DNA from: Amphiscolops sp. MND2022
Lineage: Eukaryota
DNA: 64,000 nt
Assembly (NCBI GenBank): GCA_964187785.1
Contig: OZ076409.1
Location: forward strand, 75,952,001 to 76,016,000
Reading direction: 5' to 3'
Below are positions 1-53,437 of the stretch, in pieces. The notes beneath the pieces were generated by a model. It did no database searches, was not told the DNA's origin, and worked only from the letters and a program-made list of their open reading frames with translations. Position 1 is the first letter of the stretch. Each line of letters begins with the position of its first letter. A program made the translations under genes and the position numbers.

Positions 1-10
1 CACCGTCCGT

Positions 11-79
11 GGGCATGCCGAGGCATGCCCTTCGACGACGTATGCCAAATGCCCAGTGCCACGCAGTCATTATCGCTAG
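11..79 (+). repeat. Terminal module (example copy): 20-nt perfect hairpin, tail and CTAG 3' end
   Basis: GGGCATGCC-GA-GGCATGCCC at 11-30 and CTAG at 76-79. A subterminal hairpin plus CTRR is the established Helitron 3' signature. Confidence 0.9.
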
Positions 80-1367
80 GTGCCGGGATTTCTATTCGAT
101 AAAGTATGTGGCGCGCCTTGGGTAGGGTCCCTTGCGCGCTCTTGGGTATGGTGTTCACCAGCTAGGAAATAGGGGTCGATTTTTCGGGATCTCCTAAACT
201 AGCCACACGATTTGGCTGAAATTTGGCACACGTACTCCCCTCGGCATGGTGAAGATGATTCCCTACTAGCGTTTTGCTCGAAAAATTTTTTTTGTTGTCC
301 AAAATAACGGTTTTTGGGGTAAAATTTTGAATTTTTTTTAAATTTTATCTTATATCTCGCCACGGGTTTACGCTAGCGCTTCAAGACCCTGCTAAAGAAA
401 GCTTGCAAACTGTCTCAGGAATGCGGTGTGAAATTTTCAGCTCAATCGGACTTAAACTCAGGGAGATATAGCGTTTTTCCGGAGCGGGGGGGTTTCATTT
501 TTCTAACGGTCCAGCTTATCTTTGCCATTTTTTCGAAAATGCACTCGCCTAAAGGCCTCCCCTGGCCGGTTTTATTCCCAGCAAAACCATTTGGCCCTAA
601 ATACGGAGTTTCAGCGTTCCAGCATTCCCGGGCGAAAAGTTGTGGGACTTAGAAAGTTTCAAAAATTTTCAAAAAAAAATTTTTCCGTTTTCCGCCCTCC
701 CCCCCTAGGGGAAAAGACCCCCCAACCAGTAATTTGAGTGAATTCATGTGGAAAGGCCATGTTTGGAGGAGAAAAATACCGTTTAGATCGTCTTTTTATC
801 TTGGCTCAACGTTGACTTATGACGTTTTGAAGGTGATGTTTGGAGAAGTAAAGCACGTGAAATGTAAACGTTATGAGTATTTATATGATCTTAAAGCCAT
901 TGAGATGCAATCTGTTTTGCTCAAAACGTAATTCATATCCGTTTGGTAGTCAATCAACACCCTTTGTTGTCATTTGACATCTTTTTTTGTTGATATAAGA
1001 AAAAATTTTGTGTATTTATTCATTTTTTTCTCATCAAATAACTTGAAACAGTTGAGTACATTCCATCCCCCCTTCACGGGGGAGATGAGAATGTACTCGC
1101 AAAAAGCCCCAAACTACGGCCCTTACCTTCCTGAGCTACGCAGTATAAAGATTGCATATTGGTTCCGACATTTTGATAGAGTTATATCTTGGTAATCTGT
1201 CTGGGTATGCAGAAAAACCAGCACGTGCTTTTTTATACCAAGTTGCTCACAACGACATTTATTTTATATCAACGCCCCCATATTTATCAACGCCCCCCGT
1301 CCGTGGGCATGCCGAGGCATGCCCTTCGACGACGTATACCAAAATATGTTCGAGCGCGTTAGCCTAG
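80..1367 (+). mobile_element. Non-autonomous unit 1, family A (head GTGCCGGGATT), 1288 bp
   Basis: Bounded by CTAG|GTG junctions. Similar to units at 18743, 21281 and 46172. Confidence 0.8.
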
Positions 1368-2634
1368 GTGGCCGTGTCTTTTCGACGTGCTTTTGCATCG
1401 AGGAGTGGGTAGGGCCCCGCGACGACCTAGAAGAATTGGATGCTCACCGAAACGTGCAGAATTCTACGAGATCTCATAGTTTGAGCCATACGATTTTGCT
1501 GAAATTTGGCATGTGGCCTGGAATTGGTGAGTAGGTAAAACGTGTAGGAGGTGATTTTTCCCAAATTCCACTGTGAGACGAGATATGGGCAAATAACGGT
1601 CCCAAAAATGGCAAAAATGCACTTTTTTCAACTTTGTCAGCCCATATCTCGTTCCCAGGTGCCCGGAGCGGGACGCGTTAAGCTGATTATAAACTCTAGG
1701 GTGTTGAGGCTGTACGGGGAAGTCAGGCCCGTTCCGATCGGACTTGTAGTCTTGGAGAAATAACGGTATTTTTGGGGAACCTTTTCTAACGGTCCAGCTT
1801 ATCTTTGCCATTTTTTCGAAAATGTACTCGCCTAAAGGCCTCCCCCTGGCCGAATTTACTCCCAGCAAAACCATTTGGCCCTAAATACGGAGTTTCAGCG
1901 TTCCAGCATTCCCGGGCGAAAAGTTGTGGGACTTGGAAAATTTTCAAAAATTTTCAAAATTTTTTTTTTCGTTTTCCGGGCCCCCAATGAAGGGGAAACG
2001 ACCCCCAACCAGTATTTTGAGTGAATTCATGTGGAAAGCCCTTGTTTTGACGAGAAAAATACCGTTTAGAACATCTTTTTATCTTGACTCAACGTTGACT
2101 TATGACGTTTTGAATGTGATGTAAGGATGTAGGAGGCATGTGATAAGTTGATGTTTTGAGTCTTTATCACATATGAAAGCGGTTGAGATGCAAGCTGTCC
2201 TGCTCAAAACGTCTTTCGTTGTAATTTTCCAGTGCACCAATACCCTTTGGTGTCATATAAACATACTTTTCGTCGATATATTAACAATTTTAATGTATTT
2301 ATTCCCATTTTTATTATCTTATAACTCAAAACAGTTGAGTACATTTCATCTCCCTTTCGGGGGAGATGAGAATGTACTCGCTAAAGACCTAGCGCCATGA
2401 CCAAAAGTTTGAAACCCACGTTTTTTATCTTCTTACAGACTTGTTTTTGTATTTTTTCGGAATTTTTTAAAAATTAATATACTTGAAATACATTACTTGA
2501 CTTTACTACTACAACCCACCTCCAACGACAACGCCCCCCTGCTTGCATCAACGCCCACCGTCCGTGGGCATGCCGAGGCATGCCCTTCGACGACGTATGC
2601 CAAATGCCCAGTGCCACGCAGTCATTTTCGCTAG
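1368..2634 (+). mobile_element. Non-autonomous unit 2, family B (head GTGGCCGTGTCTTTTCG), 1267 bp
   Basis: Near-identical to units at 39815 and 44903. Confidence 0.8.
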
Positions 2635-4029
2635 GTGGTCGGGTATTTTTTTTTACTCGTATATGACGTTTGCGAGGCTTTGGGGAGGGCCCCGTGCCGA
2701 GCCTGTACCGAAATTGGCCACATGTAGAAATCTGGCACTAAAATGCGAGATCTCAAAAAGTAGCCGTTAGAAATTTCTGAAAATTTGCATGTGGCTCTGA
2801 ATCAATGAGTAATGAAAAAGTGTAGAAGTGACTACCTCTGAAAAAATGGTCCTTGTTGCACTTTTTGCGCAATTTCTGTCGCATTGTTGCGTTTTTTATG
2901 TCATTTTCGACTTTGGAGGCAAAAAACTCATAGATGCTTTATTCCTAGCGTACCAAGTGTGGAGCAGGAAAAGTTGCAGCATCTTCAATAACGTATGCTG
3001 AGAAAATTTGGTTGCCCTCTGGTTACCCCCCACAGAGATAGAGGGGTGCTTCCGGTTACTTTTGACCCGCTAAATTTGGGAAACTGCTAATTTTCGTAAA
3101 GAAGCCGTAGATTTAGCGTGTCCACACCCTGCTGAAGTATTGTTAGGCATTTTAAGATAGATCCGATGACATGCGTTCAGTTCACCCCCCATCACCCCCT
3201 GGACCGGAAATGAATTTTTTTGTGTACTTTAAGACCGGAAGTCTCCATTTTCACCGGTAAGGAGTCCTTGTACGAGCAACTAGCAAGACATCAAAATTGA
3301 AGGAAAACCTGGGGTCAACTTAGTGACCACGTCTTGTCCAGTCATGGGTTCCGCTAAGACCGGAAATGGGGTCAAAACCCCCCTTTTGGTCGTTTTTTTA
3401 TCAGTTTGACCAGAGTTTTTTCCATGTTCAAGTCGCAATGCACATCAAACCAGTGTGAACATAAACTACATATTTATTAAGTAGACGTACCTGACACTGC
3501 CATATACCGGAAGTAACCCCCCTGACCGGAAGTTGTCAATTTTGACCAGAAATGGTCCAAAAAGTAGCGATAAATCAGTTTCTCACTGGTTTTTAGGTCA
3601 AGTTATTACTTTTTTTTCTTTCTTATTGTTTTTTTCCTACTGAAAAACATACTTTGTAGCTTGTTTGGCTAAAGTTCTGGAAAGGGATCACCTTTATCAC
3701 CCCCGATAGCCTTCCAAGTTGACCTTGGGTCAATCTTGAAGGCTATCAGTTCAGAAAACGAAAAATTGTGGAAATTGGGTTTCTCCTTTTTGTTGTAATT
3801 TTTTCCATAAAGTCAATATGTTAAATGAGGCTTTTGTTCACCTGAGTGATCTGAAACTTGTCCAGAGGTGTCACACACACTAATACCATTTCAAGTTGAA
3901 GTAAACATATGAGGGTAGTATTAGACAACATCACACACAATTACCAACGCCCACCGTCCGTGGGCATGCCGAGGCATGCCCTTCGACGACGTATGCCAAA
4001 TAGCGCCACAGGGCGCCCCTATTTGCTAG
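2635..4029 (+). mobile_element. Non-autonomous unit 3, family C (ACCGGAAGT-rich), 1395 bp
   Basis: Bounded by junctions. Related to 4030-5418 and to the first ~1 kb of 47462-49631. Confidence 0.75.
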
Positions 4030-5418
4030 GTGGTTGGGGCGGTCCCCAGAACGCACAAGGAGGCGCGGGGAGGGTCCTGCGCCGACGTAGAATAATTTCA
4101 TATAATACTAGTATCCTACATGGGTGTTTTAGAGGCGATTTTGGAATCTAACCGTAGGATTTGGATAATTTTTTGCATGCGGCCATAACTCGAAATTCTA
4201 AGAACTTTTTCCTACTGTCATTTTCCCCGCAAATTGTTTTTTGTTGACTTATGGCCGAAAAACCGGAAATAACGTCCTTTTTAGACGTTATATCCGAAGT
4301 GTCGTCATAACTTTTTTCCAGGGCATGCTAGCGTTCTCGTTCGCTTTTACACTTAGTTGCAGCATCTCAAAATACAACTGGTGGAAAATTTTGGTTGCAT
4401 TCGGATCACCCCCCACCGAGATAGAAGGGTTCCCCCCTCCAGTTTTACCCCCCAAATTTGCAAAATAGCCAATTTTGAGCATGAAGCCGAGGATTTAGCG
4501 TACCCGCACCCTCCTGATGTTTTGTTGTACGTATTGGGGTCAATCTGACGACTTGTGTGGTTTTCACCCCCAACCCCCCCTTGGAACGGAAATGACACTT
4601 TTTTGTGTTTTTTGGCAGAATTTAGCCTTTTTCATTATTAGGCAGTCGTTTTAGGGACTCCTAGCAGGATATCGAAATTGAAATACAACCTGATCACAAC
4701 CCAGTGACAATATGTTGGCCACTTGGAGGTATCATCATGACCGGAAGTGGGGTCAACCCCCCTTTTTGTGACCGCTTTTTGACCTTGTGCACCAAAATGC
4801 CAACATCTTGAGGCCTAATGAGGCATTCAAATCTGTACAAAGATAAAATGTTAGACAACCGAAGTCCCGGAAGATCTTTAGCATATACCGGAAGTTACCC
4901 CCCATGACCGGAAGTTACCAAATGTGACCGGAAATGGTCCAAAAATTAATGAAAAGTTGAATTTTTCACTATTTCAAGACCACTTAATTGAAACTTTTCA
5001 ATCTCAAAACTAGCGTACTGGCTTGTTTTGCTGAATTTATGGAAATTGATGAGCTCTATCGCCCCCGATAGCCTTCGAAGTTGACCTTGCGTCAACTTTG
5101 GAGGCTATCGATAAAGAAAAATGAACAACAAAGTACATTGTTTCTCTCGTTTTTTTCCCGTTGTTTTTCCTCAAACTTTCTTGTGACATATACATGGCCG
5201 TTAGTTGAAATCAATATTAAGCCCATGTTATAGCTGGAGCAGCGAAGCGTTACACAGACTAGTGTGGTTCTGAAATCACACTTTTTAAATTAACAACTGA
5301 CCGTCTTAGTCAACTCCACACATTCATACCAACGCCCACCGTCTGTGGGCATGCCGAGGCATGCCCTTCGACGACGTATGACGAATCCATTCCAACGACA
5401 CCCGCAGTCCTCAGCTAG
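4030..5418 (+). mobile_element. Non-autonomous unit 4, family C, 1389 bp
   Basis: Bounded by junctions. Shares the internal hairpin GATAGCCTTC...GGCTATC and ACCGGAA repeats with unit 3. Confidence 0.75.
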
Positions 5419-6692
5419 GTGGCCGCGTCTTTTAGATGGACTTTTAACCCTGAGGCGCGGGTAGGGTCCTGCGCCGAAACAGAGAAATTATACTACTGCA
5501 CATAGTCCCGTTCCAGCAACGATCTCGAAAACTGACCGTTAGAAATTCCTGAAAATTTGCATGTGGCCCCCAATTGGCAAGCAATGAAAAAGTGTAGGAA
5601 GTCATTTTTCCCAAATTCCATTGTGAGAGGAGATATATGAAAAAAACGGACCCCAAAATGACGGAAATTTCACTTTTTGACAAAAAATGTGACATTATCT
5701 CCTCAGGCAAGGTTCGGAGCGAAATTTGTCAGAACCCAAACCTCCAGCAGACTGTTAGAGCAGTGCACACAGTAAATTTCAAGGAAATCGGATTATCACA
5801 TGTGGAGAAATTGACGTTTTTCCGGCGAAATTTCTGGCAAGTGCAGTCTATCTCTGCCATTTTTTGCCCAAAATTTTTCCGAGACCCTCTCCTAAAGGCC
5901 TCCCCTGGCCCAATTTCCTCCCAAAAAAACCATTTGGCCCTAAATACGAGGTTTCAGCGTTCCAGCATACCCGTGCGAAATTTTATGGGACTTAAAAAAT
6001 TTTCAAAAATTTTCAAATTTTTTCTGAAAAAGTTCAGGCCGCCCAAAGTGAAGAAACTTCCACACAACTAGTATTGCAAGTGAATGCATGTGGAAAGCCC
6101 TGCACTTGACGAGAAAAATGCCGTTTAGAACGTCTTTTTATCTTAACTTGACGTTGACTTATGATCTTTTGAGTATGGTATAACACGTGATCACAGTAGT
6201 AACAGTCCTAAGTTTCAATTTTTTTTTCAAACAAAAACGCATGAAAAGAACCTGGAAAAGGTACTGATAGGTCAGTTGGGATATCTGAAGCCTGTGTACA
6301 TTCCCGTAGTGTATAGCGGAGGTATTTGAGACTTATTAGAAATTGTGATATATTTTATACAAGTCTTTTTTTCTCTTAGAATCTTATGCCGTTGAGTACA
6401 TTCCATCTCCCTCTCAGGGGAGATGTGAATGTACGTTTGCCAAATGCCTTGTAAAGTTCACATCTTTGATGGATTAAACTAAGTAAACAAGTGTGAGTTG
6501 CGTTTGCCGAATCACTACAGCAAAAAATATTATAACTTTAGTGAGATTGAATGCTTTTTGTCTTTAGTGTTTTTTCTTGCATAGCCGACTTCCACATCCA
6601 AATATCAACGCCCACCGTCCGTGGGCATGCCGAGGCATGCCCTTCGACGACGTATGCCAAATACCATATGCCACGCAGTCTTTTCCCGCTAG
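5419..6692 (+). mobile_element. Non-autonomous unit 5, family D (head GTGGCCGCGTCTTTT), 1274 bp
   Basis: Bounded by junctions. 3' half is highly similar to unit 23827-25098. Confidence 0.8.
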
Positions 6693-7832
6693 GTGCCGGG
6701 ATTTCTATTCGTTCAAGGATGTTGCGCGTGTGGGTAGGGCCCCTGGCGCGCTCTTTTATTTCGGGTACACCTACTCCAAATTCACGATGTGATTTCGACG
6801 ATCTCGTAAACTAGCCACACGATTTGGCTGAAATTTGGCACACAGCTCCGTTGGAACATTGTAAGAACAAATCCCTACTGACGTTTTGCCCGCTAAACAT
6901 TTTTTGTTGGTCAAAAATGCGATTTTCCGACAAAATTTTTGACTTTTTTTTCTTTTTCAACTCATATCTCGCCACAGGGTTACGCTAGCGCTTTGCAACC
7001 TATGATCCTTTTTTGTAGGGCATTGCATGTAGAACACGTATGCCAAATTTGGTGGCGATCGGACTTAAACTCAGGGAGATATAACGATTTTTTAGGTGCA
7101 TTTTTTGACATTTTTTGCTTTTGCTGATTTATCTTTGCCGTTTTTTGCCCAGATTTTTTTTGAGACACTCTCCTAAAGACCTCCCCTGGCCGGTTTACCT
7201 CCCAGCAAAACCATTTGGCCCTAAATACGAAGTTTCAGCGTTCTAGCATTCCCGGGCGAAAAGTTGTGGGACTTAGAATAATTTTTTGGAAACGCAAAAT
7301 GTGTAAAGTCAACTTCAGGCCTCCCAAAGTCAGGGAACTTCCACACAACTAGGATTGCAAGTGGATGCATGTGGAAAGTACTGGGATAGACGAGAAAAAT
7401 GAGCTATAGAACGACTCTGTAGCTTAACTTGACGTTGACTTATGACAATTTTAGTGTGAGCTTGCTAAGGGGTCCGAAAGTCAAAAATTGAAAATTGAGT
7501 TATTCCAAAGCAAATACTCCTTTATATAGGCTAATTAGGTATCAGTAACGTGAAACACGGTTGTACGGAGCGATTATTATCATAGGCGATACGGTTCGTT
7601 CAAAAAAATGTCCAAAAATTTTTTCTCTTTTTTCGTAGGTTTTTTGTCTAGGATTTTTTTCTTTGGTTTTTTCCTTAGGTTATAGGTGTAGGTTATAGAT
7701 TAGGCTTTTTCTAAGGTCCTGTTTTGCTTTCCCTGTTCACTGCATAGTTTGTTTTTAGTGGCAGAAGAAGACGACGACGACCAAGCATACGAGTTTTTCT
7801 TTTTTTTTCCTTGGGTTTTCTTCGGGTTAATG

Positions 7833-7930
7833 GCTATCCCGAAACCAGGTGCTCCTGCTCGAGGGCTTCTCGGGCGCTGGTTTCGTGTATGGGGCTTTCC
7901 CCCCCAGTAGGTAACCTCTGCCCAAATTTT
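7833..7930. other. Hairpin module, diverged copy (stem CGAAACCAG/CTGGTTTCG followed by CCCCCCCAGTAGGTAACCTCTGCCCAAATTTT)
   Basis: Perfect 9-bp inverted repeat at 7840-7848/7877-7885 with an inner stem. The 3' box is shared with the modules at 8557, 26228 and 26965. Confidence 0.5.
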
Positions 7931-8556
7931 CAAACGTCCCTCGTAATTCGCATTTTGCCGGTGTCTTTTTTTTACGGGCGTTTCGTCGAAAAAGATAGAA
8001 TTTTTCTCGGAACCGGCAAAATCGGAAAATCAATCACAAAATAAACGACGTCGAGAAATCAATCAGACTTAACGGCGTCCAGTTGCTACAAAGAAGAAGT
8101 ACAGATTAACCATGCTTCAGTTTCAGGTGCCAATCAATCAAGCTCAAGATGTCTTTTTTTGTAACTTATTAAATAGTCCATAAAATTATGGAAATTAGGA
8201 AAATTTTCAAAGGTTGGTTTTTTTTTGAAATTTAATGCAACTTATTAACATATGTGCCAAAGCTTTTGAAAGCATTAGGAGAAATCAATATAAAGTAAAC
8301 CAATATGCAGTTTAACTGTTCTAACTTCCTTCAGTTTTAGTTCACAGATGAAGATTCGCCGTAGCGATACGTAACGTTTTTTATCTAAATCGAATTTGCG
8401 GAGACTCAATCTGCCTATCGTTCGCACGGTCGTTATTGAGCATAAATTACGCTCATTGAAAAAGTGCGTGATCAGCGTCGTTCAATTTTTACGTGTAATT
8501 ATCATAGGTGCCCATATGTTAAATTGTAAGAATAGAGGTAATAGGTTTTCAAAATC

Positions 8557-8660
8557 CGGCTCATCAGAAGTTAGCTTGCGGCGTTATGCTGAAGGCCCTT
8601 CTGATGATGCTATGTCCCCCCTTTTTTAGTGGGTAACCTATGCCCAAATTTTTTTCCAGC
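8557..8660. ncRNA. Candidate structured RNA/ssDNA module, copy 1
   Basis: Stem TCATCAGAAG/CTTCTGATGA plus a small hairpin TGGGTA-ACCTA-TGCCCA. Conserved with compensatory changes at 26228 and 26965. Confidence 0.5.
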
Positions 8661-9274
8661 AATTTTTCCCAGCATTTTTGTTTTTTGTGAGTCTTAACCA
8701 AAATAATTTCTGATACATATTTTTGATTAAATATTACTTCTTAAAGTAGCTTTTCATTGAATGGTTTTAATACAATCAGAATTGTTTTTCCTTGTAAAGT
8801 TTTTTTGTAATATGAGTTTGTAACTGATGTACATGAGAATGAATTCCACCAATAAAAGACTCGAAACCTCTTGTACTGTATGTTTGATGTATGTTTATTT
8901 TATACTGAGAGTCAAGTAGGACATTACGTCTCTCGATCAAATCATAGATTTTCTTCGCTCTTTTATTTCGTTAATTGCTATTTTCCAAGTGGAACCGCTT
9001 CACACATTTGATTTTGCAAAGAAACATTGAACAAAGGTATTGTTTTAGCATATTTAGAATCAAAATTGAATTTTTCACGTTTGAAAGATTATAAGATTTA
9101 CAAGTTCTCTGATTTTATCCATCGTCTAAAACTTGATTGACTCGATTTTGGTAATTGTTCCAGTGGCGCTTCAACTATTAATTCGATTTCATTAGCCAAT
9201 TCGGTTGATCCGTATCAAATTTTAGTCCCAATGAGATACTGAAATGTTCAATTTCGTTTCATATTTTCAGGGAT

Positions 9275-12200
9275 ATGCCTCCAAGGAGAAATCGGAGTGT
9301 TAGAAACAAGTGCTCCCGGTGCCGTGTGTTTATCCCTCAGTCTTCGACTTTGTGTGCCAGTTGTGCATCTTCCTCCGCCGAGGTAACTCATGACAACGAA
9401 GACAGCAGCAGTGTTTCTATACCCAACGAAGACAACCCTCGGAACATAGTTTACCCTCCTCGTTGTACATTATGTGGATTACATGAACAGTCACAAGGCC
9501 AACTTTGTTGTTTTTGCTGTCCTGTTACTTTACCCGTTTGTACAGATGCAGAATGTCAAAAGTGCCGAAGAATTACCTGTTCATCACTGAATTCAATTTC
9601 TATGGCAGATGTAAAGCAGACCGCGTTTGGTTGCCGATTACCGGGAGAAGCATCTGATTTTGCAAGACTGTGCAACGAGTGTACTCATTACGCAACACAT
9701 GGCTTCCGATCGCCATGGAGGAATATTTGGCCATGCGTCGTTTTAGATTTCCTCAGTGGTAAATATAATGGAATTGCTGATGGAAAACCATTCCATAAAG
9801 TGTTGCCTACTTCTATTTTGGAACAATATCAACATCTGTTGCAGTTTAACACTGATGAAAAAGAGACTGTTTTTGCTGACCTGACACACAAACTGCTGGA
9901 ATTCAAAAGTTTAAAACAAAACCTCAACATTGATGGAGTGCAGAAAGCCCATAACAAGTACAGTTTTCCAGAAGTTCGCTGTCCTTTTGGTTGTACTGAG
10001 TTCGTTGGCGACACGGGATTAATACCCTTGCAATACTTTCTTCTGACGTTAGACAAAAACTTTGCTTTTAACGGAATGAAGTGGAAAAGGCGATTACGTT
10101 GTGTTCGACCAGATTGGTTGACCCCATACAATCACAATGATGCCTTCAACGTAAGACCACACATTGTTGTCGACGAGAAACAAGGACTGTGTCTTGCAAC
10201 CTGTAAATTCCACAACGGGGGATCGCACCAGTTTTTCGTCCATCCACCTACAAATCCCACTGGCAGATTACCCTCGAAAAATGCAGATCGTCTTGGTCCA
10301 GCTACAGTTAGTTATAACTGCTACAAACCAAGCAAGCCCAATTTTTCCACTCACACCTTTTCAATGGGTGTGGCTAAGGGTAATTTCTCCGGAATTAGTT
10401 CGACCACAATTGCCTGTAAGCGAAGGTGGGATATCGCATTTGGTGAAGATGACGTCGTAAGAGAGTCTCTTTGTTCAAACAAACGACAGGATATAAAACC
10501 GCTGTTACAAAAACTTGTGCACAAAGGAGAGTTATCACAGAATCTCTTTGATAGCATTACATCAATTGAAGGTTTGCCTGACGATCAAACAATTCTGGAA
10601 TGTTTGAAGACTGCTACATCCGTCCCTTTGGAGTTAGCTCTTGCATTAAAGAAAATTCAAGAAGAAGGATTAAATGTAAACTATTTTCCGGTATTCTCCC
10701 ATCCTTTCACAAAATACGGATGTGATCCACCTGACACAGTTGTAAACCAGTCAATGCCGAAATATTTATGGATTTATGCTGTAATGTTTGCTTTGAGTTG
10801 CAACTTCCATTTGTCTCTTTTGAAATTCATTTCAACAGATAGTGCCTTCAAAAATGTGTTCCATTTTATGCTGATTAATGATGGTAGACTGGCTGATAAA
10901 AAGAAACGAGAACTTGCAGAGTTCCTTCAACGTTATTCACAAGATCCTAGTTATGACATGGTTGACAGTTTGGAACAATTGCTAACAAACATATCTTTCG
11001 TCAAACACTTCAATGTAACTGACAGAGAAAGTGTTGAATCAATTTTGAAATCTCTGACCGATGACAAAATTGTAACTTTCATTACCAATGCAAGGAGAAG
11101 AGACGATGGTTACTTGCCGGATAGAGTGGTAACTACGAATGGGTCAACATCATACGAACTACGATCAATTGCTGTCACTGAGGGCGGCAACGTAAAAACA
11201 CTCGTTAGACATGGTAATGAATATAATTGTTGGTGGATATACTCTACAGCTCATGAGACTCCATCAAAAATGGGTCTTGAAGATCTGGTGGAGATGAACA
11301 AATTTCATTCTAGTTGGTTGTCCTGCCATTACGAGATCATTGGTTCAGTTGACATGCAGAGAGAAAAATACCAGTACTTGGAATATTTAGGAGGCCAAGG
11401 ACGATTCATTTGTGACGATCATCATGTCCCTCTTACAGTAGCCAGAAAAAATACTCCGACTCTTTGTTCGTTCAGTACCAGCTGTCAGCGAAAACCCGCT
11501 TGGAATTGCCCGTCGGAGAACTGCTTGTCGTCAGTCTGCCGTACTCATTTCGCACAACACCAGCTTAGCAATGAACGTTTCTTTGTCAAATGCCCCACTT
11601 CAAATTGTGACGTTGTTCCTCCACATTCTGCTGAATGTTGTGATGATGATGTAGTTGTTTCTGAACCCGAATCAGACTACGATGAATTTTCTTTTACAAA
11701 TTTCACAACCGACACTGGTCATGTTGAAAATATGACAAATTGTTGTGCTACTGATTCTGGAGACATGCCGTCAGTCGTTGACAGTGTTGACACATCAATT
11801 CCTGCCCATATTTTGCTAAACACTGATTGTCATGTACTAGAAAGGAAGAACTACAGAATTGACCGTTCCAAAACAAGTTCTCGATTTTTACAAAACATTG
11901 TCGCAAGATCATCTGGTAACTCCATCCCTCTCATTTACCCTGACGCAGCACTCTTCCCTACACATTATTATCATGAACAGACGGACAATACTATTACTGG
12001 CGCTGTTCCGGCTCCTCTCTTTTGTGATAAACAGAGCAAACACTTTCTCTTTGCAAGCATTGAGGATCATAAGCGATCAGCTGTTCTGAACCCAAATCTT
12101 TTGCAATCAACCGACGTTAGAAGTATTCAGACATCTTTCGACACCGTGCTGAATAAACGTCTCACTTTTTCCGATACACGTTTGGTTCTCAATCGAGGAT

Positions 12201-16258: not shown

Positions 16259-16818
16259 TTCATTTGGGTTTACAAATATTACACTGTAGAAGTCTCTGAG
16301 AATGGACGATAGATGAAGCATGTGAGGTTGCCCCGGCCACGCAGTGAGCCGAGGGCAAGCTTTATTCAAACTATAGATGAACATCCTTTTTTGTTGAAAA
16401 GTTCTTTGATTATACTTTGCCTTTGCTCATTTTTTCAACGTTCCTTTGTAAATATATACTGATAAAATTGTCACCCGTTGATAATATTACCAGTTGACAC
16501 TGAAGTTGACACCAGTCAAGAAAAAAAATATTTATCTGACTGGAACAAAAAAAGACAAAAAAAACAAGATGGCAAGATTGTTGAAACAGTTCAATTCTTC
16601 AACTTCGATAATCTTTTCCTTAACATATTTTTACCATCACGTGGAGGGAAATAGAAAAACATTTCTACAGTTAATTAGTTCGAAAGAGAAAAATTAGACA
16701 GTATTTAGACGCAGTAGTGATGTTGTACATCGAAAGAAATGAAAATGTGTCGAGAAACATAACTTTATTGTGTTTTTAGATAGCTTTGTCTTCAATCGAG
16801 ACTGAAACAAGATTCAAA

Positions 16819-33976: not shown

Positions 33977-34059
33977 GTAAGTTGTTCAACTTTTTTAAAA
34001 AATGTAAAAGTCGTTGAAGCCTTTTAATTGAAAAATAATATTTTATAATTTTTTAACAG

Positions 34060-42363: not shown

Positions 42364-43633
42364 GTGGCCGTGTCTTTTCGACGTGCTTTTGCATTGAGGA
42401 GTGGGTAGGGCCCCGCGACGACCTAGAAGAATTGGATGCTCACCGAAACGTGCAGAATTCTACGAGATCTCATAGTTTGAGCCATACGATTTTTCTGAAA
42501 TTTGGCATGTGGCCTGGAATTGGTGAGTAGGTAAAACGTGTAGAAGGTAATTTTTCCCAAATTCCACTGTGAGAGGAGATATGGGCAAATAACGGTCCCA
42601 AAAATGGCAAAAATGCACTTTTTTCAACTTTGTCAGCCCATATCTCGTTCCCAGGTGCTCGGAGCGGGACGCGTTAAGCTGATTATAAACTCTAGGGTGT
42701 TGAGGCTGTACGGGGAAGTCAGGCCCGTTCCGATCGGACTTGTAGTCTTGGAGAAATAACGGTATTTTTGGGGAACCTTTTCTAACGGTCCAGCTTATCT
42801 TTGCCATTTTTTCGAAAATGTACTCGCCTAAAGGCCTCCCCCTGGCCGAATTTACTCCCAGCAAAACCATTTGGCCCTAAATACGGAGTTTTAGCGTTCC
42901 AGCATTGCCGGGCGAAAAGTTGTGGGACTTGGAAAATTTTCAAAAATTTTCAAAAAATTTTTTTTCGTTTTCCGGGCCCCCAATGAAGGGGAAACGACCC
43001 CCCAACCCTTATTTTGAGTGAATGCATGTGGAAAGGTCATGGTTAGAGGAGAAAAATACCGTTTAGATTGTCTTTCTATTTTAACTTGACATTGACTTAT
43101 GACGTTTTGAATGTGATGTTAGGATGTGTGAGGCATGTGAAAAGTTGATGTTTTGAGTCTTTATCTCATATGAAAGCAATTGAGATGCACGCTGTCCTGC
43201 TCAAAACGTCTTTCGTTGTAGTTTTCCAGTGCACCAGAACCCTTTGGTGTCATTTGAACATACTTTTCTTCGGTTTATTAACATTTATAATGTGTTTATT
43301 CCAATTTTTATTATCTTATAGCTCAAAACAGTTGAGTACATTTCATCTCCCTTTCGGGGGAGATGAGAATGTACTCGCTAAAGACCTAGCGCCATGACCA
43401 AACTTTGAAGCGCACGTTTTGTATCTTCTTACAGACTTGTTTTTGTATTTTTTCGGATTTTTCAAAAAAATAATAATATACTTGAAATACATTACTTGAC
43501 TTTACTACTACATTCCACCTCCAACGTCAACGCCCCCCTGCTTGCATCAACGCCCACCGTCCGTGGGCATGCCGAGGCATGCCCTTCGACGACGTATGCC
43601 AAATGCCCAGTGCCACGCAGTCATTATCGCTAG
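42364..43633 (+). mobile_element. Non-autonomous unit 15, family B variant, 1270 bp
   Basis: Near-identical to unit 49632-50903. Confidence 0.8.
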
Positions 43634-44902
43634 GTGGCCGGGAACTTTTTTTCCTGCATTTTTCTGTCCAATTGGGGGAGGGGCCCCAAGTGGCTGTTAT
43701 CCGGTTTTACTACCTACCCTAAACACGCTCAAAAAATGACGATCTCGAAAACCACCCCTTAGATTTTCCTGAAATTTTGCATACAGGCCTAGAATCAAAT
43801 CCTAAGAACTATTTCCTACTGGCGTTTTTCCGAATTTTTTCAAAAAGTTGGTCAAAAATGCAACAAAAGTTGCCAATGGACATAAAAAACGCAACTTTTG
43901 GACTTTGAAGGCTAATATCTTTTTCCAGAGTGCCCGGAGCGGTTCGCACGTGGACCACAATATTGCTGAGCATTGTCGGGGGAGTGCGTGGAAAAATTTT
44001 GGTTTGAATCGGATGAAAATTGATTGAGAAATAAACGCAAATTTTCGTGCATTTGTTGCAAATACCAGTCTATCTCTGCCATTTTCGCCCAAAATTTTTC
44101 CCAGAGCCTTTACAGGAGGCAACCCCTGCCCAAATTTCTGCCGAGCAAACCCATTTGACCCTAAATACGAGGTTTCAGCGTTCTAGCATTTCCGGGCAAA
44201 AAGTTGTGGGACTTTGAAAAATTTCAAAAAATTGCAAAAATTGTAAAAAGTAAATTCTGGCGTCCCAAAGTCAAGAAACTTTCACACAACTAGTATTGCA
44301 AGTGAATGCATGTGGAAAGTACTTGGATAGACGAGAAAAATGAGCTATAGAACGACTCTCTAGATTAACCTGACGTTGACTTATGACAATTTGAGTGTGA
44401 GCATCCTATAGGATTTCAATGTCAAAAATGAGATTTTGTAAGTCATGTCTAATCAAAAACTCATCGGAACACGTTCAATCAGCCCCATAGCTGTTCAATC
44501 ACTGTGGCTTAGTATAGCAACGCCATTTACTATCTTTAGGCCCATTTTGAAAATTTTCGTTACCGTCTTATTCGTCCGATATCACGAAACAGTTGAGTAC
44601 ATTCCATCTCCCCCTTGGAGGGAGATGAGAATGTACTCGCCAAAGACCTGATACAATGGCCCATATTGGATTATCTTTGACCTTTCTCACGATATTGCAC
44701 ACGGATAGCTGTGTTTGGTAAAAGTTTTCCTTTGCACCATGTCTCCAGAAGCTGAACCACTTCTTTAGCTTACTACTACTCAAACATCACTAACGTCAAC
44801 GCCACATACTCGCATCAACGCCCACCGTCCGTGGGCATGCCGAGGCATGCCCTTCGACGACGTATGCCAAATAGCGCCACAGGGCGCAAACTTGTCCGCT
44901 AG
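43634..44902 (+). mobile_element. Non-autonomous unit 16, family E, 1269 bp
   Basis: Bounded by junctions. 3' half is related to units 21 and 22; tail is shared with unit 10. Confidence 0.78.
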
Positions 44903-46171
44903 GTGGCCGTGTCTTTTCGACGTGCTTTTGCATTGAGGAGTGGGTAGGGCCCCGCGACGACCTAGAAGAATTGGATGCTCACCGAAACGTGCAGAATTCT
45001 ACGAGATCTCATAGTTTGAGCCATACGATTTTGCTGAAATTTGGCATGTGGCCTGGAATTGGTGAGTAGGTAAAACGTGTAGGAGGTGATTTTTCCCAAA
45101 TTCCACTGTGAGACGAGATATGGGCAAATAACGGTCCCAAAAATGGCAAAAATGCACTTTTTTCAACTTTGTCAGCCCATATCTCGTTCCCAGGTGCCCG
45201 GAGCGGGACGCGTTAAGCTGATTATAAACTCTAGGGTGTTGAGGCTGTACGGGGAAGTCAGGCCCGTTCCGATCGGACTTGTAGTCTTGGAGAAATAACG
45301 GTATTTTTGGGGAACCTTTTCTAACGGTCCAGCTTATCTTTGCCATTTTTTCGAAAATGTACTCGCCTAAAGGCCTCCCCCTGGCCGAATTTACTCCCAG
45401 CAAAACCATTTGGCCCTAAATACGGAGTTTCAGCGTTCCAGCATTCCCGGGTGAAAAGTTGTGGGACTTGGAAAATTTTCAAAAATTTTCAAAAATTTTT
45501 TTTTTCGTTTTCCGGGTCCCCAATGAAGGGGAAACGACCCCCCAACCAGTATTTTGAGCGAATTCATGTGGAAAGCCCTTGTTTTGACGAGAAAAATACC
45601 GTTTAGAACATCTTTTTATCTTGACTCAACGTTGACTTATGACGTTTTGAATGTGATGTAAGGATGTAGGAGGCATGTGATAAGTTGATGTTTTGAGTCT
45701 TTATCTCATATGAAAGCGGTTGAGATGCAAGCTGTCCTGCTCAAAACGTCTTTCGTTGTAATTTTCCAGTGCACCAATACCCTTTGGTGTCATATAAACA
45801 TACTTTTTGTCGATATATTAACAATTTTAATGTATTTATTCCAATTTTTATTATCTTATAACTCAAAACAGTTGAGTACATTTCATCTCCCTTTTGGGGG
45901 AGATGAGAATGTACTCGCTAAAGACCTAGCGCCATGACCAAAAGTTTGAAACCCACGTTTTTTATCTTCTTACAGACTTGTTTTTGTATTTTTTCGGAAT
46001 TTTATAAAAATTAATATACTTGAAATACATTACTTGACTTTACTACTACAACCCACCTCCAACGACAACGCCCCCCTGCTTGCATCAACGCCCACCGTCC
46101 GTGGGCATGCCGAGGCATGCCCTTCGACGACGTATGCCAAATGCCCAGTGCCACGCAGTCATTATCGCTAG
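44903..46171 (+). mobile_element. Non-autonomous unit 17, family B, 1269 bp
   Basis: Near-identical to unit 2. Confidence 0.8.
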
Positions 46172-47461
46172 GTGCCGGGATTTCTATTCGTTCGAGTATG
46201 TGGCGCGTGTGGGTAGGGCCCCTGGCGCGCTCTTGTGTTTGGGGGTTTCCTACTTCTAAATCACGTTCAGATTTCCGGGATCTCGTAAACTATCCATACG
46301 ATTTGGCTGAAATTTGGCACACGTACCCCCCTCGGCACGGTGAAGATGATTTCCTACTGACGTTTTTCCCGCTAAACATTTTTTGTTGACCAAAATAACG
46401 GTTTTTGGTGGAAAATTTTTGATTTTTTTTAAATTTTATCTTATATCTCGCCACGGGTCCACGCTAGCGCTTCCAAACCCTGCTGACGAAACCTCGCAAA
46501 CTGTCTCAGGAATGCTGTGTGAAATTTTCAGGTCAATCGGACTTAAACTCGGGGAGATATAGCGTTTTTCCGGAGCGGGGGGGTTTCATTTTTCTAACGG
46601 TCCAGCTTATCTTTGCCATTTTTTCGAAAATGCACTCGCCTAAAGGCCTCCCCTGGCCGGTTTTACTCCCAAAAAAACCATTTGGCCCTAAATACGGAGT
46701 TTCAGCGTTCTAGCATTCCGGGGCGAAAAGTTGTGGTACTTAGTAAATTTCAAAAATTTTCAAAAATTTTTTTTTCGTTATTTGGGCCCCCAAAGTGGGG
46801 GAAAAGACCCCCCAACCAGTAATTTGAGTGAATTCATGTGGAAAGGCCATGTTTAGCGGCGAAAAATGCTTTTTAGATCGTCTTTTTATTTTAACCTGTT
46901 GTTGACTTATGTTGTTTTGAAGGTGATGTTTGGATGTGTGAAGCATGTGAAAAGGTAATTTTTTGTGTCTTTATCTCTTCTAAAAGCCATTGAGATGCAA
47001 TCTGTTTTGCTCAAAACGTAATTCAATGCAATTTGGCAGTCAATGAACACAATTTGGTGTCTTTTGTTATATTTTTCTGTTGATATAATAAAAAATTTTG
47101 TGTCTTTATTAATTTTTTTTAAATAAAATAACTTGAAACAGTTGAGTACATTCCATCCCCCCCTTCCGGGGGAGATGGAAATGTACTCGCTAAAAGCCGC
47201 GAACAAGAGCCCATACCTTCCTGCGCTACGCAGTATAAAGATTGCATGTTGGTTCCGACTTTTTGGTAGTGTTATATCTTGGTAATTTGACTGAATATGG
47301 AGAAAAATCAGCAAGTGCTCTTTTATAGCAAATTGCTGACAACGACAATTTTTTTATATCAACGCCCCCATATTTATCAACGCCCCCCGTCCGTGGGCAT
47401 GCCGAGGTATGCCCTTCGACGACGTATACCAAGATATACTCCCGAGCGCGGTAGCCGCTAG
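46172..47461 (+). mobile_element. Non-autonomous unit 18, family A, 1290 bp
   Basis: Similar to unit 1. Terminal hairpin carries a G-T variant (GGTATGCCC). Confidence 0.8.
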
Positions 47462-49631
47462 GTGGAGGTTATTATATATCAATTAAAGTGTTTTTTTCCG
47501 GAGTTTGTGGCTTTGGAAAAAACAAAAGGCGAGAAATTGGGCACTCCAGGCTGAACCTAAAAACACCCTAAAATTCGCCCGATTTTTTTACGATCTCGAA
47601 ACCCAACCGTACGATTTGGCTGAAAATTTGCATGTGGCTCCTAATCAATGAGTAATGAAAAAGTGTAGGAGTGACTTTTCCTGGGAAAATTGTTTTTGTT
47701 GCACTTTTTGCGCAATTTTTGACCGATTGTTGCGTTTTTTATGTCACTTTTGACTTTTCAGGCAAAAAACTCATAGATGCTTTGATCCTAGCGCATCGAG
47801 TGTTTCGACCAAAAAGTTGCAACATGGTCTTTTACGTACGTTGAGAAAATTTGGTAGCCATCGTATTACCCCCCACTGAGATAGAGGGAACTTCCGGTGG
47901 ATTTTCGCACTCTAAAAACGAGGACCTCCTAAATTTCAGCATGAAGCCGTAGTTTTAGCGTGCTCATACCCTGCTGAAGTTTTGTTGGGCATATTGAGAT
48001 AGTTATGATATCATGTGTTCAGTTCACCCCCCATCACCCCCTGGACCGGAAATGAACTTTTTTTGCACTATCATACCGGAAGTCTCCAATTTCACCGTTA
48101 AGCAGTTCTTGTACGAGCAACTACCAGGACATCAAAATTGAAGTACCACCTGAGGTCAACGTAGTGACTACGTGTTGTCCAGTCATAGGTTCCGCTATGA
48201 CCGGAAATGGGGTCCAAACCCCCTTTTTTGGTTGTTTTTCAACAATTTTACGAGTGTTTGGTCCACATTCAAGTCGCGTAAGTCAATTGAATCAGTGTGA
48301 GCATAAACTGTATGTTCACTGCGTAGACGTAACTGACACTGACAGATACCGGAAGTAACCCCCCGTGACCGGAAGTTGTCATTTTTGACCGGAAATGGTC
48401 CAAAATGTAGCGTAAAATCAGTTTTCCACTGCTTTTTAAAGTCAACTTATTATTTTTTCAATCTCCGCGAGCTTGTATTCAGGTTCGTTTTTGTTACCCG
48501 TGCACTTTGCAACAAATATACATCTGTAAAATTTTCTCTATAATATCTTCGGATAGAGAAATAACGTGTTTTTGAGACTTTTTTCAAAAATATTAGACTA
48601 TATCTGTCATTTACCCAAAGTTTTTCAACATAACGACCACAGTGGTTCGTCTCTGCCCAAATTTGTGCCTAAAAAACTATTTGGCCCATTGGCCTCAGTT
48701 TGAGCGTTCCAGCTTTGCGTGATCATAAGCTAAGGGACTTGAAAAAATTTCGAACTTTTTTCAAAAAAAAATTCTCACATTCATGTCTCCCAAAGTGAAG
48801 AAACTTCCACACAACTAGGATTGCAAGTGGATGCATGTGGCAAGCCCTATAATTGAAGGGAAAAATGCCGCTTAGAACGTCTCTTTATCGTAACTTGACG
48901 TTAACGTATGGTGCTTTGAATGAGAGCTTGATAAGAGGTCGAGAAGTCAAAGTGTGTAAATGGAACGTATGTCTCGTCGAAAACTCACCGGAATTCATGC
49001 AATGAACCCCAATTGTCCTCAATTGCAGTTGCCTACTGCAACAACGTCTTTCTGGTACATTTTACTCTTTTTCATAAGTGTCAAAATTATTTTTAAATTC
49101 AGTTAGCAAGAAACACTTGAGTACATTTTCATCTCTCCCCAGCGGGTGAGATGAGAATGTTCTTGCTAAATGCCAGGTACTACGGCCCCCCTTTTGTTTT
49201 AATGCGACGCATTCTCTGCTTTAGCACATAGATATTTCATTTCGCCTGGTTTTTTGTATACTCTCTGACTTGTTATTATAAAGTTCTCGTCATTACTGTA
49301 CATAAATTTACAACCATAAATCGTTATCGGCAACGCCACATACACTTAGACACCCACCATTCTGTAGGTATGTCGAGGCATACCTTTCGATTATGTCATA
49401 ACGCAAACGCGATAAAAAGTGCTGAAATTCAGAAACAGTGACAATCAATTTTCACTATTTGACATATGGTAGGTTTTTATAGGGAACTTACACATCACTG
49501 ACATTTCACAACATTCCAGCTGACGCCCACATACCATATCAACGCCCACCGTCCGTGGGCATGCCGAGGCATGCCCTTCGACGACGTATGCCAATTTTTT
49601 TATATCTACACTCAATTGCGGTAGCAGCTAG
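47462..49631 (+). mobile_element. Composite non-autonomous unit 19, 2170 bp
   Basis: Family C 5' part, diverged standard 3' part, relic terminal hairpin at 49366-49385 without CTAG, then an intact terminus at 49557-49631. Confidence 0.72.
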
Positions 49632-50903
49632 GTGGCCGTGTCTTTTCGACGTGCTTTTGCATTGAGGAGTGGGTAGGGCCCCGCGACGACCTAGAAGAAT
49701 TGGATGCTCACCGAAACGTGCAGAATTCTACGAGATCTCATAGTTTGAGCCATACGATTTTTCTGAAATTTGGCATGTGGCCTGGAATTGGTGAGTAGGT
49801 AAAACGTGTAGGAGGTGATTTTTCCCAAATTCCACTGTGAGACGAGATATGGGCAAATAACGGTCCCAAAAATGGCAAAAATGCACTTTTTTCAACTTTG
49901 TCAGCCAATATCTCATTTCCAGGTGCCCGGAGCGGGACGCGTTAAGCTGATTATAAACTCTAGGGTGTTGAGGCTGTACGGGGAAGTCAGGCCCGTTCCG
50001 ATCGGACTTGTAGTCTTGGAGAAATAACGGTATTTTTGGGGAACCTTTTCTAACGGTCCAGCTTATCTTTGCCATTTTTTCGAAAATGTACTCGCCTAAA
50101 GGCCTCCCCCTGGCCGAATTTACTCCCAGCAAAACCATTTGGCCCTAAATACGGAGTTTCAGCGTTCCAGCATTCCCGGGCGAAAAGTTGTGGGACTTGG
50201 AAAATTTTCAAAAATTTTCAAAAAATTTTTTTTTTCGTTTTCCGGGCCCCCAATGAAGGGGAAACGACCCCCCAACCCTTATTTTGAGTGAATGCATGTG
50301 GAAAGGTCATGGTTAGAGGAGAAAAATACCGTTTAGATTGTCTTTCTATTTTAACTTGACATTGACTTATGACGTTTTGAATGTGATGTTAGGATGTGTG
50401 AGGCATGTGAAAAGTTGATGTTTTGAGTCTTTATCTCATATGAAAGCAATTGAGATGCACGCTGTCCTGCTCAAAACGTCTTTCGTTGTAGTTTTCCAGT
50501 GCACCAGAACCCTTTGGTGTCATTTGAACATACTTTTCTTCGGTTTATTAACATTTATAATGTGTTTATTCCAATTTTTATTATCTTATAGCTCAAAACA
50601 GTTGAGTACATTTCATCTCCCTTTCGGGGGAGATGAGAATGTACTCGCTAAAGACCTAGCGCCATGACCAAACTTTGAAGCGCACGTTTTGTATCTTCTT
50701 ACAGACTTGTTTTTGTATTTTTTCGGATTTTTCTAAAAAATAATAATATACTTGAAATACATTACTTGACTTTACTACTACATTCCACCTCCAACGTCAA
50801 CGCCCCCCTGCTTGCATCAACGCCCACCGTCCGTGGGCATGCCGAGGCATGCCCTTCGACGACGTATGCCAAATGCCCAGTGCCACGCAGTCATTATCGC
50901 TAG
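49632..50903 (+). mobile_element. Non-autonomous unit 20, family B variant, 1272 bp
   Basis: Near-identical to unit 15. Confidence 0.8.
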
Positions 50904-52170
50904 GTGGCCGGGAATTTTTTTTCTGCTCAATTCTTTGCCAACTGGGGGAGGGGCCCCTGGTGGCTGTTACCCAAATTACATACCTACCCAAATCGTCCGC
51001 TCCGGATACGATCTCAAAACTGAGCCACACAATTTTCCTGAAACTTTGCATGTGAGCCTAAAATGAGATTGTAAGAACAATGATATAGGCGTTATTCCTG
51101 AATTTTTTCAAAAAGTTGGTCAAAAACGCAAAAAATGGGTCAAAATTGACCTCTTTTTCAACTTTTTTATTTTTGAGAGCCCATATCTCGGAACGAGGTG
51201 GCCGTAGCGGGCCGCATAAGGACTCCGTTTTTGCTGGGCACTTGATGAGGAGTGCGTGGACAAATTTTCGTCCAAATCGAAGGAAAATTGACTGAGTAAT
51301 GAGTGATTTTTTGACGACCTTTTTTGCGAACCCCATTGTATCTCTGCCATTTTCCGCCAAAATTTTCAAAAATGCTTCTACAGGAGGCAACCCCTACCCA
51401 ATTTTCTGCAAAACAAAACCATTTGGCCCTAAATACGAGGTTTCAGCGTTCTAGCATTCCCCGGTGAAAAGTTATAGGACTTAGAAATTTGTCATTGAAA
51501 CGCAAAATTTGTAAAGTCAACTTCCGGTGCCCAAAAGTCACAAAACTTTCACACAACTAGTATTGCAAGTGAATGCATGTGGAAAGTACTGAAATAGACG
51601 AGAAAAATGAGCTATAGAACGACTCTCTACCTTAACCTGACGTTGACTTATGATGTTTTGAATGTGAGCATCCTATCTGATTTTAATGTCAAAAATGAGA
51701 TTTTGTAAGTCATGTCTCATCAAAAACTCAACGGAATACGTTCAATCATCCCCATAGCTGTTCAATTGCCGTGGCTTAGCGCAGCAACGCCATTTAATGT
51801 CTTTGGACCCAATTTGAAAATTATCGATACCGTCTTATTCGTCCGATATCACGAAACAGTTGAGTACATTCCATCTCCCTCTTTGGGGGGAGATGAGAAT
51901 GTACTCGCTAAAGAGCTGGTACAATGGCCCATATTTGTTTTTAACTGACGCTTCTCATGATATTTCACACGTACACCTCTATTTGGTAACACATTTTCCT
52001 TTGCACCATGTTTATATATGCTAAACCACTTCTTTACCTTACTACTTCTACTCTAACATCACCAACGTCAACGCCACATACTCGCATCAACGCCCACCGT
52101 CCGTAGGCATGCCGAGGCATGCCTTTCGACGACGTATACCTAGTATACGCGTTAGCGCGGTAGCCGCTAG
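50904..52170 (+). mobile_element. Non-autonomous unit 21, family E, 1267 bp
   Basis: Close tandem relative of unit 22. Confidence 0.8.
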
Positions 52171-53437
52171 GTGGCTGGGAATTTTTTTTCTGCTCAATTC
52201 TTTGCCAACTGGGGGAGGGGCCCCTGGTGGCTGTTACCCAAAATACATACCTACTAAAATCGTCCGCTCCGGAGACGATCTCGAAAACCAATCCATAACT
52301 TTTTCTGAAACTTTGCATGTGGGCCTAAAATGAGATTGTAAGAACAATGATATAGGCGTCATTTCTGAATTTTTGCAAAAAGTTGGTCAAAAACGCAAAA
52401 AATGGGTCAAAATTGACCACTTTTTCAACTTTTTTATTTTTGAGAGCCCATATCTCGGAACGAGGTGGCCGTAGCGGCCCGCATAAGGACTCCGTTTTTG
52501 CTGGGCACTTGATGAGGAGTGCGTGGACAAATTTTTGTCCCAATCGAAGTAAAATTGACTGAGTAATGAGTGATTTTTTGACGACCTTTTTTGCGAACCC
52601 CATTGTATCTCTGCCATTTTCCGCCAAAATTTTCAAAAGTGCTTCTACAGGAGGCAATCCCTGCCCAATTTTCTGCAAAACAAAACCATTTGGCCCTAAA
52701 TACGAGGTTTCAGCGTTCTAGCATTCCCCGGTGAAAAGTTATGGGACTTAGAAATTTGTCAGTGAAACGCAAAATTTGTAAAGTCAACTTCCGGTGCCCA
52801 AAAGTCACAAAACTTTCACACAACTAGTATTGCAAGTGAATGCATGTGGAAAGTACTGAAATAGACGAGAAAAATGAGCTATAGAACGACTCTCTACCTT
52901 AACCTGACGTTGACTTATGATGTTTTGAATGTGAGCATCCTATGTGATTTTAATGTCAAAAATGAGATTTTGTAAGTCATGTCTCATCAAAAACTCATCG
53001 GAATACGTTCAATCATCTCTATAGCTGTTCAATTGCCGTAGCTTAGTACAGCAACGCCATTGAATGTCTTTGGACCCATTTTGAAAATTATCGATACCGT
53101 CTTATTCGTCCGATATCACGAAACAGTTGAGTACATTCCATCTCCCTCTTTGGGGGGAGATGAGAATGTACTCGCTAAAGAGCTGGTACAATGGCCCATA
53201 TTTGTTTTTAACTGACGCTTCTCATGATATTTCACACGTACACCTCTATTTGGTAACACATTTTCCTTTGCACCATGTTTATATATGCTAAACCACTTCT
53301 TTACCTTACTACTTCTACTCAAACATCACCAACGTCAACGCCACATACTCGCATCAACGCCCACCGTCCGTAGGCATGCCGAGGCATGCCTTTCGACGAC
53401 GTATACCTAGTATACGCGTTAGCGCGGTAGCCGCTAG
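52171..53437 (+). mobile_element. Non-autonomous unit 22, family E, 1267 bp; last unit of the array
   Basis: Ends CCGCTAG followed by unrelated TTAAGAG. Confidence 0.8.

Follow-up and report, generated by a model that had tools for sequence, protein, structure and literature searches.

A 64,000-nt stretch of the genome of Amphiscolops sp. MND2022 (assembly GCA_964187785.1, contig OZ076409.1, 75,952,001-76,016,000; the whole stretch is called the window below, and positions are numbered within it) contains a head-to-tail array of Helitron-like transposons, all on one strand. With the units cut after a terminal CTAG, the array comprises 19 short units of 1264-1395 nt, one composite unit of 2170 nt, and two autonomous units of 12,050 nt (unit A, 6693-18742) and 14,716 nt (unit B, 25099-39814). 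Both long units encode a RepHel transposase, in which a Rep domain with an HUH motif and two tyrosines is fused to a PIF1 helicase, with matches to Helitron_like_N and PIF1, and the non-autonomous copies share both ends with the autonomous ones; both are features of the Helitron superfamily. The array and its genes are as follows.

1..53437, plus strand: head-to-tail Helitron-like array of 22 complete units, its left end outside the window
9275..16258, plus strand: RepHel transposase A, 2327 amino acids, with an HUH motif, Y-x3-Y, a PIF1 helicase and a C-terminal SLX1-like GIY-YIG domain
16786..17796, plus strand: accessory open reading frame (ORF) A, a predicted RPA-like OB-fold single-stranded DNA-binding protein (low-confidence model, Foldseek)
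27705..35810, plus strand: RepHel transposase B, split over three open frames (OTU-like, Rep, helicase/GIY-YIG)
37704..38537, plus strand: accessory ORF B, 28% identical to accessory ORF A

Near their 3' ends the units carry a near-invariant block of about 55 nt that includes a 20-nt hairpin with a 9-bp stem. We scanned the plus strand for this 20-mer, allowing at most two mismatches, and recovered 23 intact copies, with none in 100 dinucleotide shuffles of the window. Seventeen copies are exact, four have an A-T outer pair, one has a changed loop and one a G-T wobble. The copy at 49366, the 24th, differs at five positions, yet its stem is fully paired. A preliminary description of this DNA had called the hairpin almost invariant, listed these same variants and assigned the A-T form to both autonomous elements, and all of this held. 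The copies are listed below.

2547..2603, plus strand: example of the 3' subterminal block, with its hairpin at 2566-2585
Starting at 11, 1305, 3962, 5347, 6623, 21216, 22487, 23757 and 25030, plus strand: other exact-type stems from the 20-mer scan
Starting at 41014, 42294, 43565, 44833, 46103, 49557 and 50835, plus strand: further stems from the same scan
18672..18691, plus strand: A-T outer-pair hairpin at the end of autonomous unit A
39746..39765, plus strand: A-T outer-pair hairpin at the end of autonomous unit B
52105..52124, plus strand: A-T outer-pair hairpin of unit 21
53372..53391, plus strand: A-T outer-pair hairpin of unit 22, which is 97% identical to unit 21 and the last in the array
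19952..19971, plus strand: hairpin with a loop-only change
47395..47414, plus strand: hairpin with a single G-T wobble
49366..49385, plus strand: decayed version of the block inside composite unit 19, with two double changes, one wobble and decayed flanks

In all 23 intact copies the end of the stem lies 43-55 nt from the end of the CTAG, as first described. Units meet at CTAG|GTG in 22 of 22 internal junctions, and the array ends at CTAG|TTAA (53437), with no pieces of units in the flank from 53438 to 64000. The spacers of units 21 and 22 have an additional, earlier CTAG at +19, accompanied by a perfect 7-bp inverted repeat (52132-52148 and 53399-53415) that is imperfect in their relatives and looks like a template-switch product. 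No CTAG follows the decayed copy at 49366 within 90 nt. This copy lies 204 nt after its own internal hairpin (described below), a spacing seen in normal units, and an intact block begins 190 nt beyond it.

The preliminary description proposed that the terminal hairpin is under structural selection, with compensatory substitutions. We evaluated pairing on the nine distinct rows among the 24 copies, using 500 column shuffles. All 81 cells of the 9-bp stem are paired, which 4 of 500 shuffles equaled; on this measure and on the score measure, 5/500 or fewer is also seen in 5-25% of related alignments without constraint. No stem pair is broken in any of the 24 copies. The A-T variant occurs on three body lineages, with the hairpins at 52105 and 53372 counted once because their units are 97% identical, and a single A-T clade was rejected (approximately unbiased test, p = 0.0002; 5' tree of 21 units, without unit 19). 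In simulations, five random changes kept every pair, including two double changes, in 0.2-3% of cases, a figure that refers to the 49366 copy, picked post hoc. Other results speak against structural selection. Among intact copies only one pair, the outermost, is compensated, and a second appears only in the decayed copy at 49366. Two double-changed pairs are matched by 33 of 500 shuffles, and a test comparing own with swapped arms was not significant (p = 0.33, 0.08 and 0.14), having little power with three to seven variants. Five of the nine pairs never vary, rising to seven of nine within the 23 intact copies, whose unit bodies are 53-99% alike.

The bases around the stem vary as little as the stem itself. 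Across 22 copies (those at 11 and 49366 left out), 10 of 440 bases changed in the stem-loop and 7 of 220 in the 10 bases before it, while positions +1 to +11 on its 3' side had 0 of 242. The loop is unchanged in 23 of 24 copies and inverted in none. The conserved entity is the ~55-nt block rather than the stem alone. A proposed extension of the stem by CGTC/GACG across a 3x3 internal loop fared unevenly: these bases can pair in 35 of 36 cells (nine distinct rows), but folding of single sequences favors other registers for the outer helix. Hairpins in the spacers folded better than shuffles (p <= 0.05) in only 4 of 23 cases, and the 161-nt junction region as a whole did not fold better than shuffles (z = -0.72). 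The lone changes at paired positions, at 47395, in pair 8 of 49366 and in the outer helix of 22487, are C to T in three of three cases, giving a G-T pair on the plus strand that is harmless on that strand only; no copy has a lone G-to-A change. We conclude that coupling between the arms, as reflected in the double changes, is likely real and that selection on pairing is plausible, with the paired changes too few to establish it and the invariance of the flanks and the single compensated pair of the intact copies limiting the original claim.

A second hairpin, missed in the preliminary description, lies about 45 nt inside the 5' end; in 21 of 22 units its loop falls at +41 to +51. All 20 non-coding units also contain a third hairpin, a long one (~18-20 bp, -12.6 to -18.7 kcal/mol) about 190-240 nt ahead of the terminal block, for which no counterpart was found in either autonomous unit; two unrelated sequence versions of it occupy the same place.

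5454..5475 and 43669-43693, plus strand: examples of the 5' hairpin
2337..2377, plus strand: example of the internal hairpin, with 19 equivalents; the other version is at 3705 and 5067

The 5' hairpin has an invariant GG-KAGGGN-CC core and an outer stem that varies between subfamilies with pairing kept. Its own arms folded better than swapped arms (p = 0.0002 with nine subfamily representatives, 0.00003 with 14 distinct variants and 0.033 with five), and it has 15 double-changed cells, reached by 0 of 500 shuffles. When 171 anchors along the unit were compared, just two reached p <= 0.001, both in this hairpin, with the internal hairpin next strongest. It is thus the best covariation signal in the unit, stronger than that of the terminal hairpin, and by contrast the terminal block looks sequence-constrained. 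The 5' hairpin is weak in seven units (-2 to -3 kcal/mol), the number of its double-changed pairs matches the mean of the shuffles (257/500), and RNAalifold retains just four of its pairs because the register of the outer stem shifts between subfamilies.

The junctions bear on how the array grew. Identity reaches 94% or more in eleven unit pairs, which come from a group of five units and one separate pair. In these pairs, the units' own heads and spacers are 97-100% alike, the spacers of their upstream neighbors 39-73% and the heads of their downstream neighbors 53-80%, such that similarity switches exactly at the junction. Only about 7 nt are common at a junction, which we consider too little for ordinary crossover, and the units likely joined the array one by one. 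A simple rolling-circle concatemer is ruled out, as 14 of 15 adjacent pairs of short units are only 53-85% alike, and so is crossover inside the block as the usual route of shuffling, since spacers travel with the upstream body. In vitro, Helraiser, an element of the HLE1 group, makes a precise plus-strand cut at its own end-to-end junction (PMC5876387), from which a junction in the genome would be a ready target; joining one molecule to another would use the chemistry that closes a circle. For a maize pair, successive insertion at the end of a Helitron has been proposed (PMC2267711), and in this respect the arrangement of the array is not new in kind; the available part of PMC4224331 holds nothing on tandem junctions.

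Composite unit 19 (47462-49631) has a 5' kilobase resembling unit 3 and a second half resembling unit 16 with the decayed block, followed by a new end. The autonomous units have short relatives within the array: unit B and unit 14 are 98% identical over 741 nt and unit A and unit 8 are 82% identical over 806 nt, with the 3' block in common. Seventeen of the short units measure 1264-1290 nt (mean 1273, sd 7) at 65-99% identity; nucleosome spacing, circle size and replication length are conceivable constraints on this near-fixed ~1.27-kb length.

The two RepHel proteins are 26% identical over 1607 aligned positions. The three frames of transposase B are likely joined by introns, and the intron-like breaks visible in element B, together with the retrotransposon in the flank (see below), point to eukaryotic DNA. 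The frame at 27705-28856 has no Pfam match on its own and aligns to the OTU part of a relative, P0016 (E = 3e-20); an OTU domain occurs in 3 of the 16 aligned members. A C-terminal GIY-YIG domain is present in 10 of the 16 aligned relatives (SLX1 match, E = 1.5e-7) and lies at about 15890-16150 in A and about 35480-35700 in B. At its key positions element A and 11 cluster members have F, E, I and V/L, where sister families such as P0014/P0015, with an intact motif, have Y, R, H and E, which we take to be the catalytic residues. An active GIY-YIG nuclease in these elements was therefore rejected: the residues at the catalytic positions are replaced in A and the domain of B looks degenerate too, and judging by these residues the domain is likely inactive in both. 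The model of accessory protein A is of low confidence (mean predicted local distance difference test score 57.7), with RPA as its best Foldseek matches (E = 4e-6). Upstream of the RepHel gene both autonomous elements share a 134-199 nt segment, at 8531-8726 in A and doubled in B (26202-26398 and 26956-27097), which is a candidate promoter or leader.

With a probability of roughly 60%, we propose that the ~55-nt block is a site that RepHel reads, by sequence and by fold, before cutting near CTAG. We favor this reading because the RepHel genes lie inside units that end in the same block; because the block is 98% identical over 56 nt between elements A and B despite transposases that are 26% identical; because the 11 bases after the stem are unchanged, 23 of 24 loops are intact and no pair is broken; and because the lone changes favor the plus strand, the strand that Helraiser moves (PMC5876387). 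RepHel would nick at the GTG (5') end of a unit and displace the plus strand from the nick onward, pause on the folded block on that displaced strand, and cut at the CTAG junction 43-55 nt beyond the hairpin. The freed 3' end would then join its own 5' end, giving a circle, or that of another element, giving a mixed array. The double changes likely arose via a wobble and its later repair, or in one template switch that block exchange later spread. Because the spacer length varies, the cut would not be measured from the stem. The copy at 49366, with decayed flanks, no end behind it and a fresh block next, would fit bypass of an end once its flanks were lost. In Helraiser, deleting the hairpin lowers efficiency to ~9% with more read-through, and replacing the stem keeps ~90% of activity, whereas changing the loop does not (PMC4778049). 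The fixed loop seen here fits that loop requirement (PMC4778049), and the fixed stem and flanks exceed the Helraiser pattern, suggesting either reading by sequence or recent homogenization.

Several points weigh against this proposal. The same replaceability of the Helraiser stem at ~90% activity indicates that the stem of Helraiser is not read by sequence (PMC4778049), and homogenization alone could make the block invariant. The cut site may be CTAG|GTG or C|TAGGTG, with the left end of the array and any lone copies out of view, and the DNA evidence comes from a single 64-kb window. The bias of wobbles toward the plus strand comprises just three changes of three.

A mutational account is possible, if somewhat doubtful, and is compatible with a block read by RepHel: template switching between the arms would create double changes, and exchange of blocks would spread one variant, with pairing unselected. 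Template switching is a known mechanism that yields double changes in one event (bioRxiv 2021.04.15.439925). Ends do get exchanged here: spacer types are mixed among the body lineages, only the last ~86 nt of element B match the short units, and the end blocks of A and B are nearly identical, so that a single origin of the A-T variant, spread by exchange, is possible. The spacer inverted repeat of units 21 and 22 also fits, and the pooled probability that both G-to-A changes fall opposite a changed C is 0.29. The absence of a lone G-to-A change from every copy counts against this account, as does that of an inverted loop (0/24), and sequences to either side of the block differ among the A-T copies, such that a single origin needs several short exchanges.

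We regard as unlikely a terminator that acts by structure only, as in Helraiser, where any stem would work and compensation would mean selection on pairing. The complete pairing of 81 cells (4/500 shuffles), the three lineages with the A-T variant, the pair of double changes in the decayed copy (0.2-3% by chance) and the compensatory changes already published for Helitron2 ends (PMC3627910) are what it predicts. However, given that the Helraiser stem is exchangeable (PMC4778049), such a terminator should vary more than the block does. Seven of nine pairs are fixed in the 23 intact copies although the bodies are 53-99% alike, the flanks are as invariant as the stem, and the copy at 49366 is fully paired yet has no end behind it.

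In IS91, oriIS is the origin end of the element. The block could similarly be an origin rather than a stop, as in oriIS or in a reversed HLE2 element, with replication running into the element, which we consider quite improbable. The block is far more conserved than the 5' ends and Helitrons with reversed ORFs exist (PMC3627910, PMC5148889, PMC11417382), but more diverse left ends are normal in Helitrons (PMC11417382). In addition, CTAG followed by a host T matches the HLE1 3' end, the lone changes favor the plus strand, and none of the 22 units is truncated to this end only. Finally, the block is very unlikely to be a double-stranded palindromic protein site, bound by a host factor or a transposase dimer without a hairpin: the 20-mer consists of two 8-bp palindromes 10 bp apart and has one mismatch to the p53 consensus (RRRCWWGYYY, twice), 21 of 23 intact copies having only that one and the A-T variant keeping R and Y, but all 24 copies share the mismatch at position 10, tolerance of R and Y leaves the joint change of positions 1 and 20 unexplained, and a literature search by title only gave nothing on p53 sites in Helitrons.

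We also compared the units with known systems, and the ends fit neither HLE1 nor HLE2. The CTRR 3' end of HLE1 is matched by CTAG in 23 of 23 copies, if the cut follows the G. Its 5' TC is not matched, with GTG in 22 of 22 (the alternative cut C|TAG gives TA). The array units resemble Helraiser and HLE1 (PMC4778049, PMC5876387) in a two-tyrosine HUH RepHel, an RPA-like accessory gene, a ~20-nt palindrome near the 3' end, a CTAG terminus followed by a host T, and precise head-to-tail junctions, and differ in the GTG start, the near-invariance of stem and flanks, the extra 5' and internal hairpins, and the GIY-YIG and OTU-like domains. They also differ in hairpin distance, 43-55 nt against the 10-15 nt of HLE1 (PMC13286980). 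The preliminary statement that the hairpin lies farther from the end than usual stands relative to HLE1 and not relative to HLE2, where palindromic Helentron subterminal motifs lie 38-60 nt from the end and are nearly identical between diverged families (PMC4067079) and FoHeli1/2 subterminal repeats lie at 38-51 nt (PMC5148889).

Other similarities to HLE2 (Helitron2, Helentron/HINE and FoHeli) are hairpins at both ends, compensatory changes, reported in two Culex elements (PMC3627910), one moss family with a captured GIY-YIG domain (PMC11417382), and an OTU domain, which is optional and HLE2-restricted (PMC11417382) and for which an OTU-like frame is present here. The asymmetric terminal inverted repeats of HLE2, 8-17 nt long, have no clear counterpart here: the best matches are 6-9 nt with one mismatch, near the shuffled means of 7-8 nt, and in 9 of 22 units a recurring match of 8-9 nt links the 5' end to bases immediately before the stem. 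Unlike HLE2, the units have neither T-rich ends nor insertion into TT, the junctions being CTAG|GTG, and neither DUF6570 nor an apurinic endonuclease was found in the 16 aligned members or in 44 relatives among the matches listed. Known consecutive Helitron insertions share the zero-spacer junctions between different elements; the array is unlike them in having 22 junctions in a row, at least eight subfamilies, 17 units of 1264-1290 nt, and two transposases 26% identical that use one end.

The preliminary description also likened the hairpin to attC or REP sites. Integron attC core sites are RYYYAAC and GTTRRRY and are used by a tyrosine recombinase. We rejected attC because neither core occurs in any of the 24 copies and no integrase was found among 11 ORFs scanned. 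The likeness to repetitive extragenic palindromes (REP) with TnpA-REP and IS200/IS605 (PMC8266576) includes an HUH enzyme, GTRG at the 5' foot of the hairpin (24/24), a conserved irregular zone and a downstream CT. The enzyme is, however, a Y2 RepHel rather than Y1, GTRG overlaps the stem, and GTRG does not steer the junction. In the REP system GTGG shifts cleavage to CC (PMC8266576), and a guide rule of this kind was rejected for the array, where GTGG and GTAG copies both mostly end in GCTAG.

The protein family is large: relatives of the Rep core number 887 representatives at E <= 0.001, more distant Helitrons included; one named relative, from hagfish, is 32% identical. Scans with the hairpin pattern found no copies in viral contigs and one match in prokaryote genomes, which has unrelated flanks and was taken as chance. 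Scans with the RepHel alignment matched four metagenome contigs and one genome contig of 1.0-4.4 kb and no viral contigs. In one of the matched contigs (L002, 1-2200) no element end was recognized. Another relative (L005, 1-2512) comes from a 2.5-kb contig assigned to a bacterial metagenome-assembled genome, where it probably represents misbinned eukaryotic DNA. Neither the accessory protein nor P0095 gave any match when used for scans, and none of these scans yielded a copy of a unit end from outside the window. Rfam gave one match below threshold in 1-8000 of the window, and a tRNA search found none. Units and flank have CpG observed/expected ratios of 0.82-0.96, with no depletion and little sign of methylation. 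The flank holds a retrotransposon of the long interspersed element type at 55180-58941, with an ORF1-like frame, an endonuclease and a reverse transcriptase, split at its 3' end.

Our literature searches on GIY-YIG fusion and self-targeting, with subscription papers and Repbase outside their reach, gave one moss family with a captured GIY-YIG domain (PMC11417382) and, among the papers listed, none describing this clade or type of end; the family lists of HELIANO and Repbase may already hold the clade. A Helitron end is expected to carry a conserved hairpin, and compensatory changes at such ends are already published, which makes the hairpin alone a modest finding. The interest lies in its setting: one block serves two transposases that are 26% alike, the ends fall outside both groups, and units are joined at a single exact point, sharing about 7 nt there. 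Tentatively, we suggest a Helitron clade, with RepHel, an SLX1-like GIY-YIG domain and RPA, whose members, even when diverged, may read a shared end block as both stop and landing pad, insert exactly at one another's ends, and build long mixed arrays of ~1.27-kb units of fixed length, each junction flanked at about 50 nt on both sides by a structure-conserved hairpin. If the block directs insertion, it would provide a compact rule, open to testing, by which a eukaryotic rolling-circle transposase chooses its cut and its target, and a natural site-specific landing pad.

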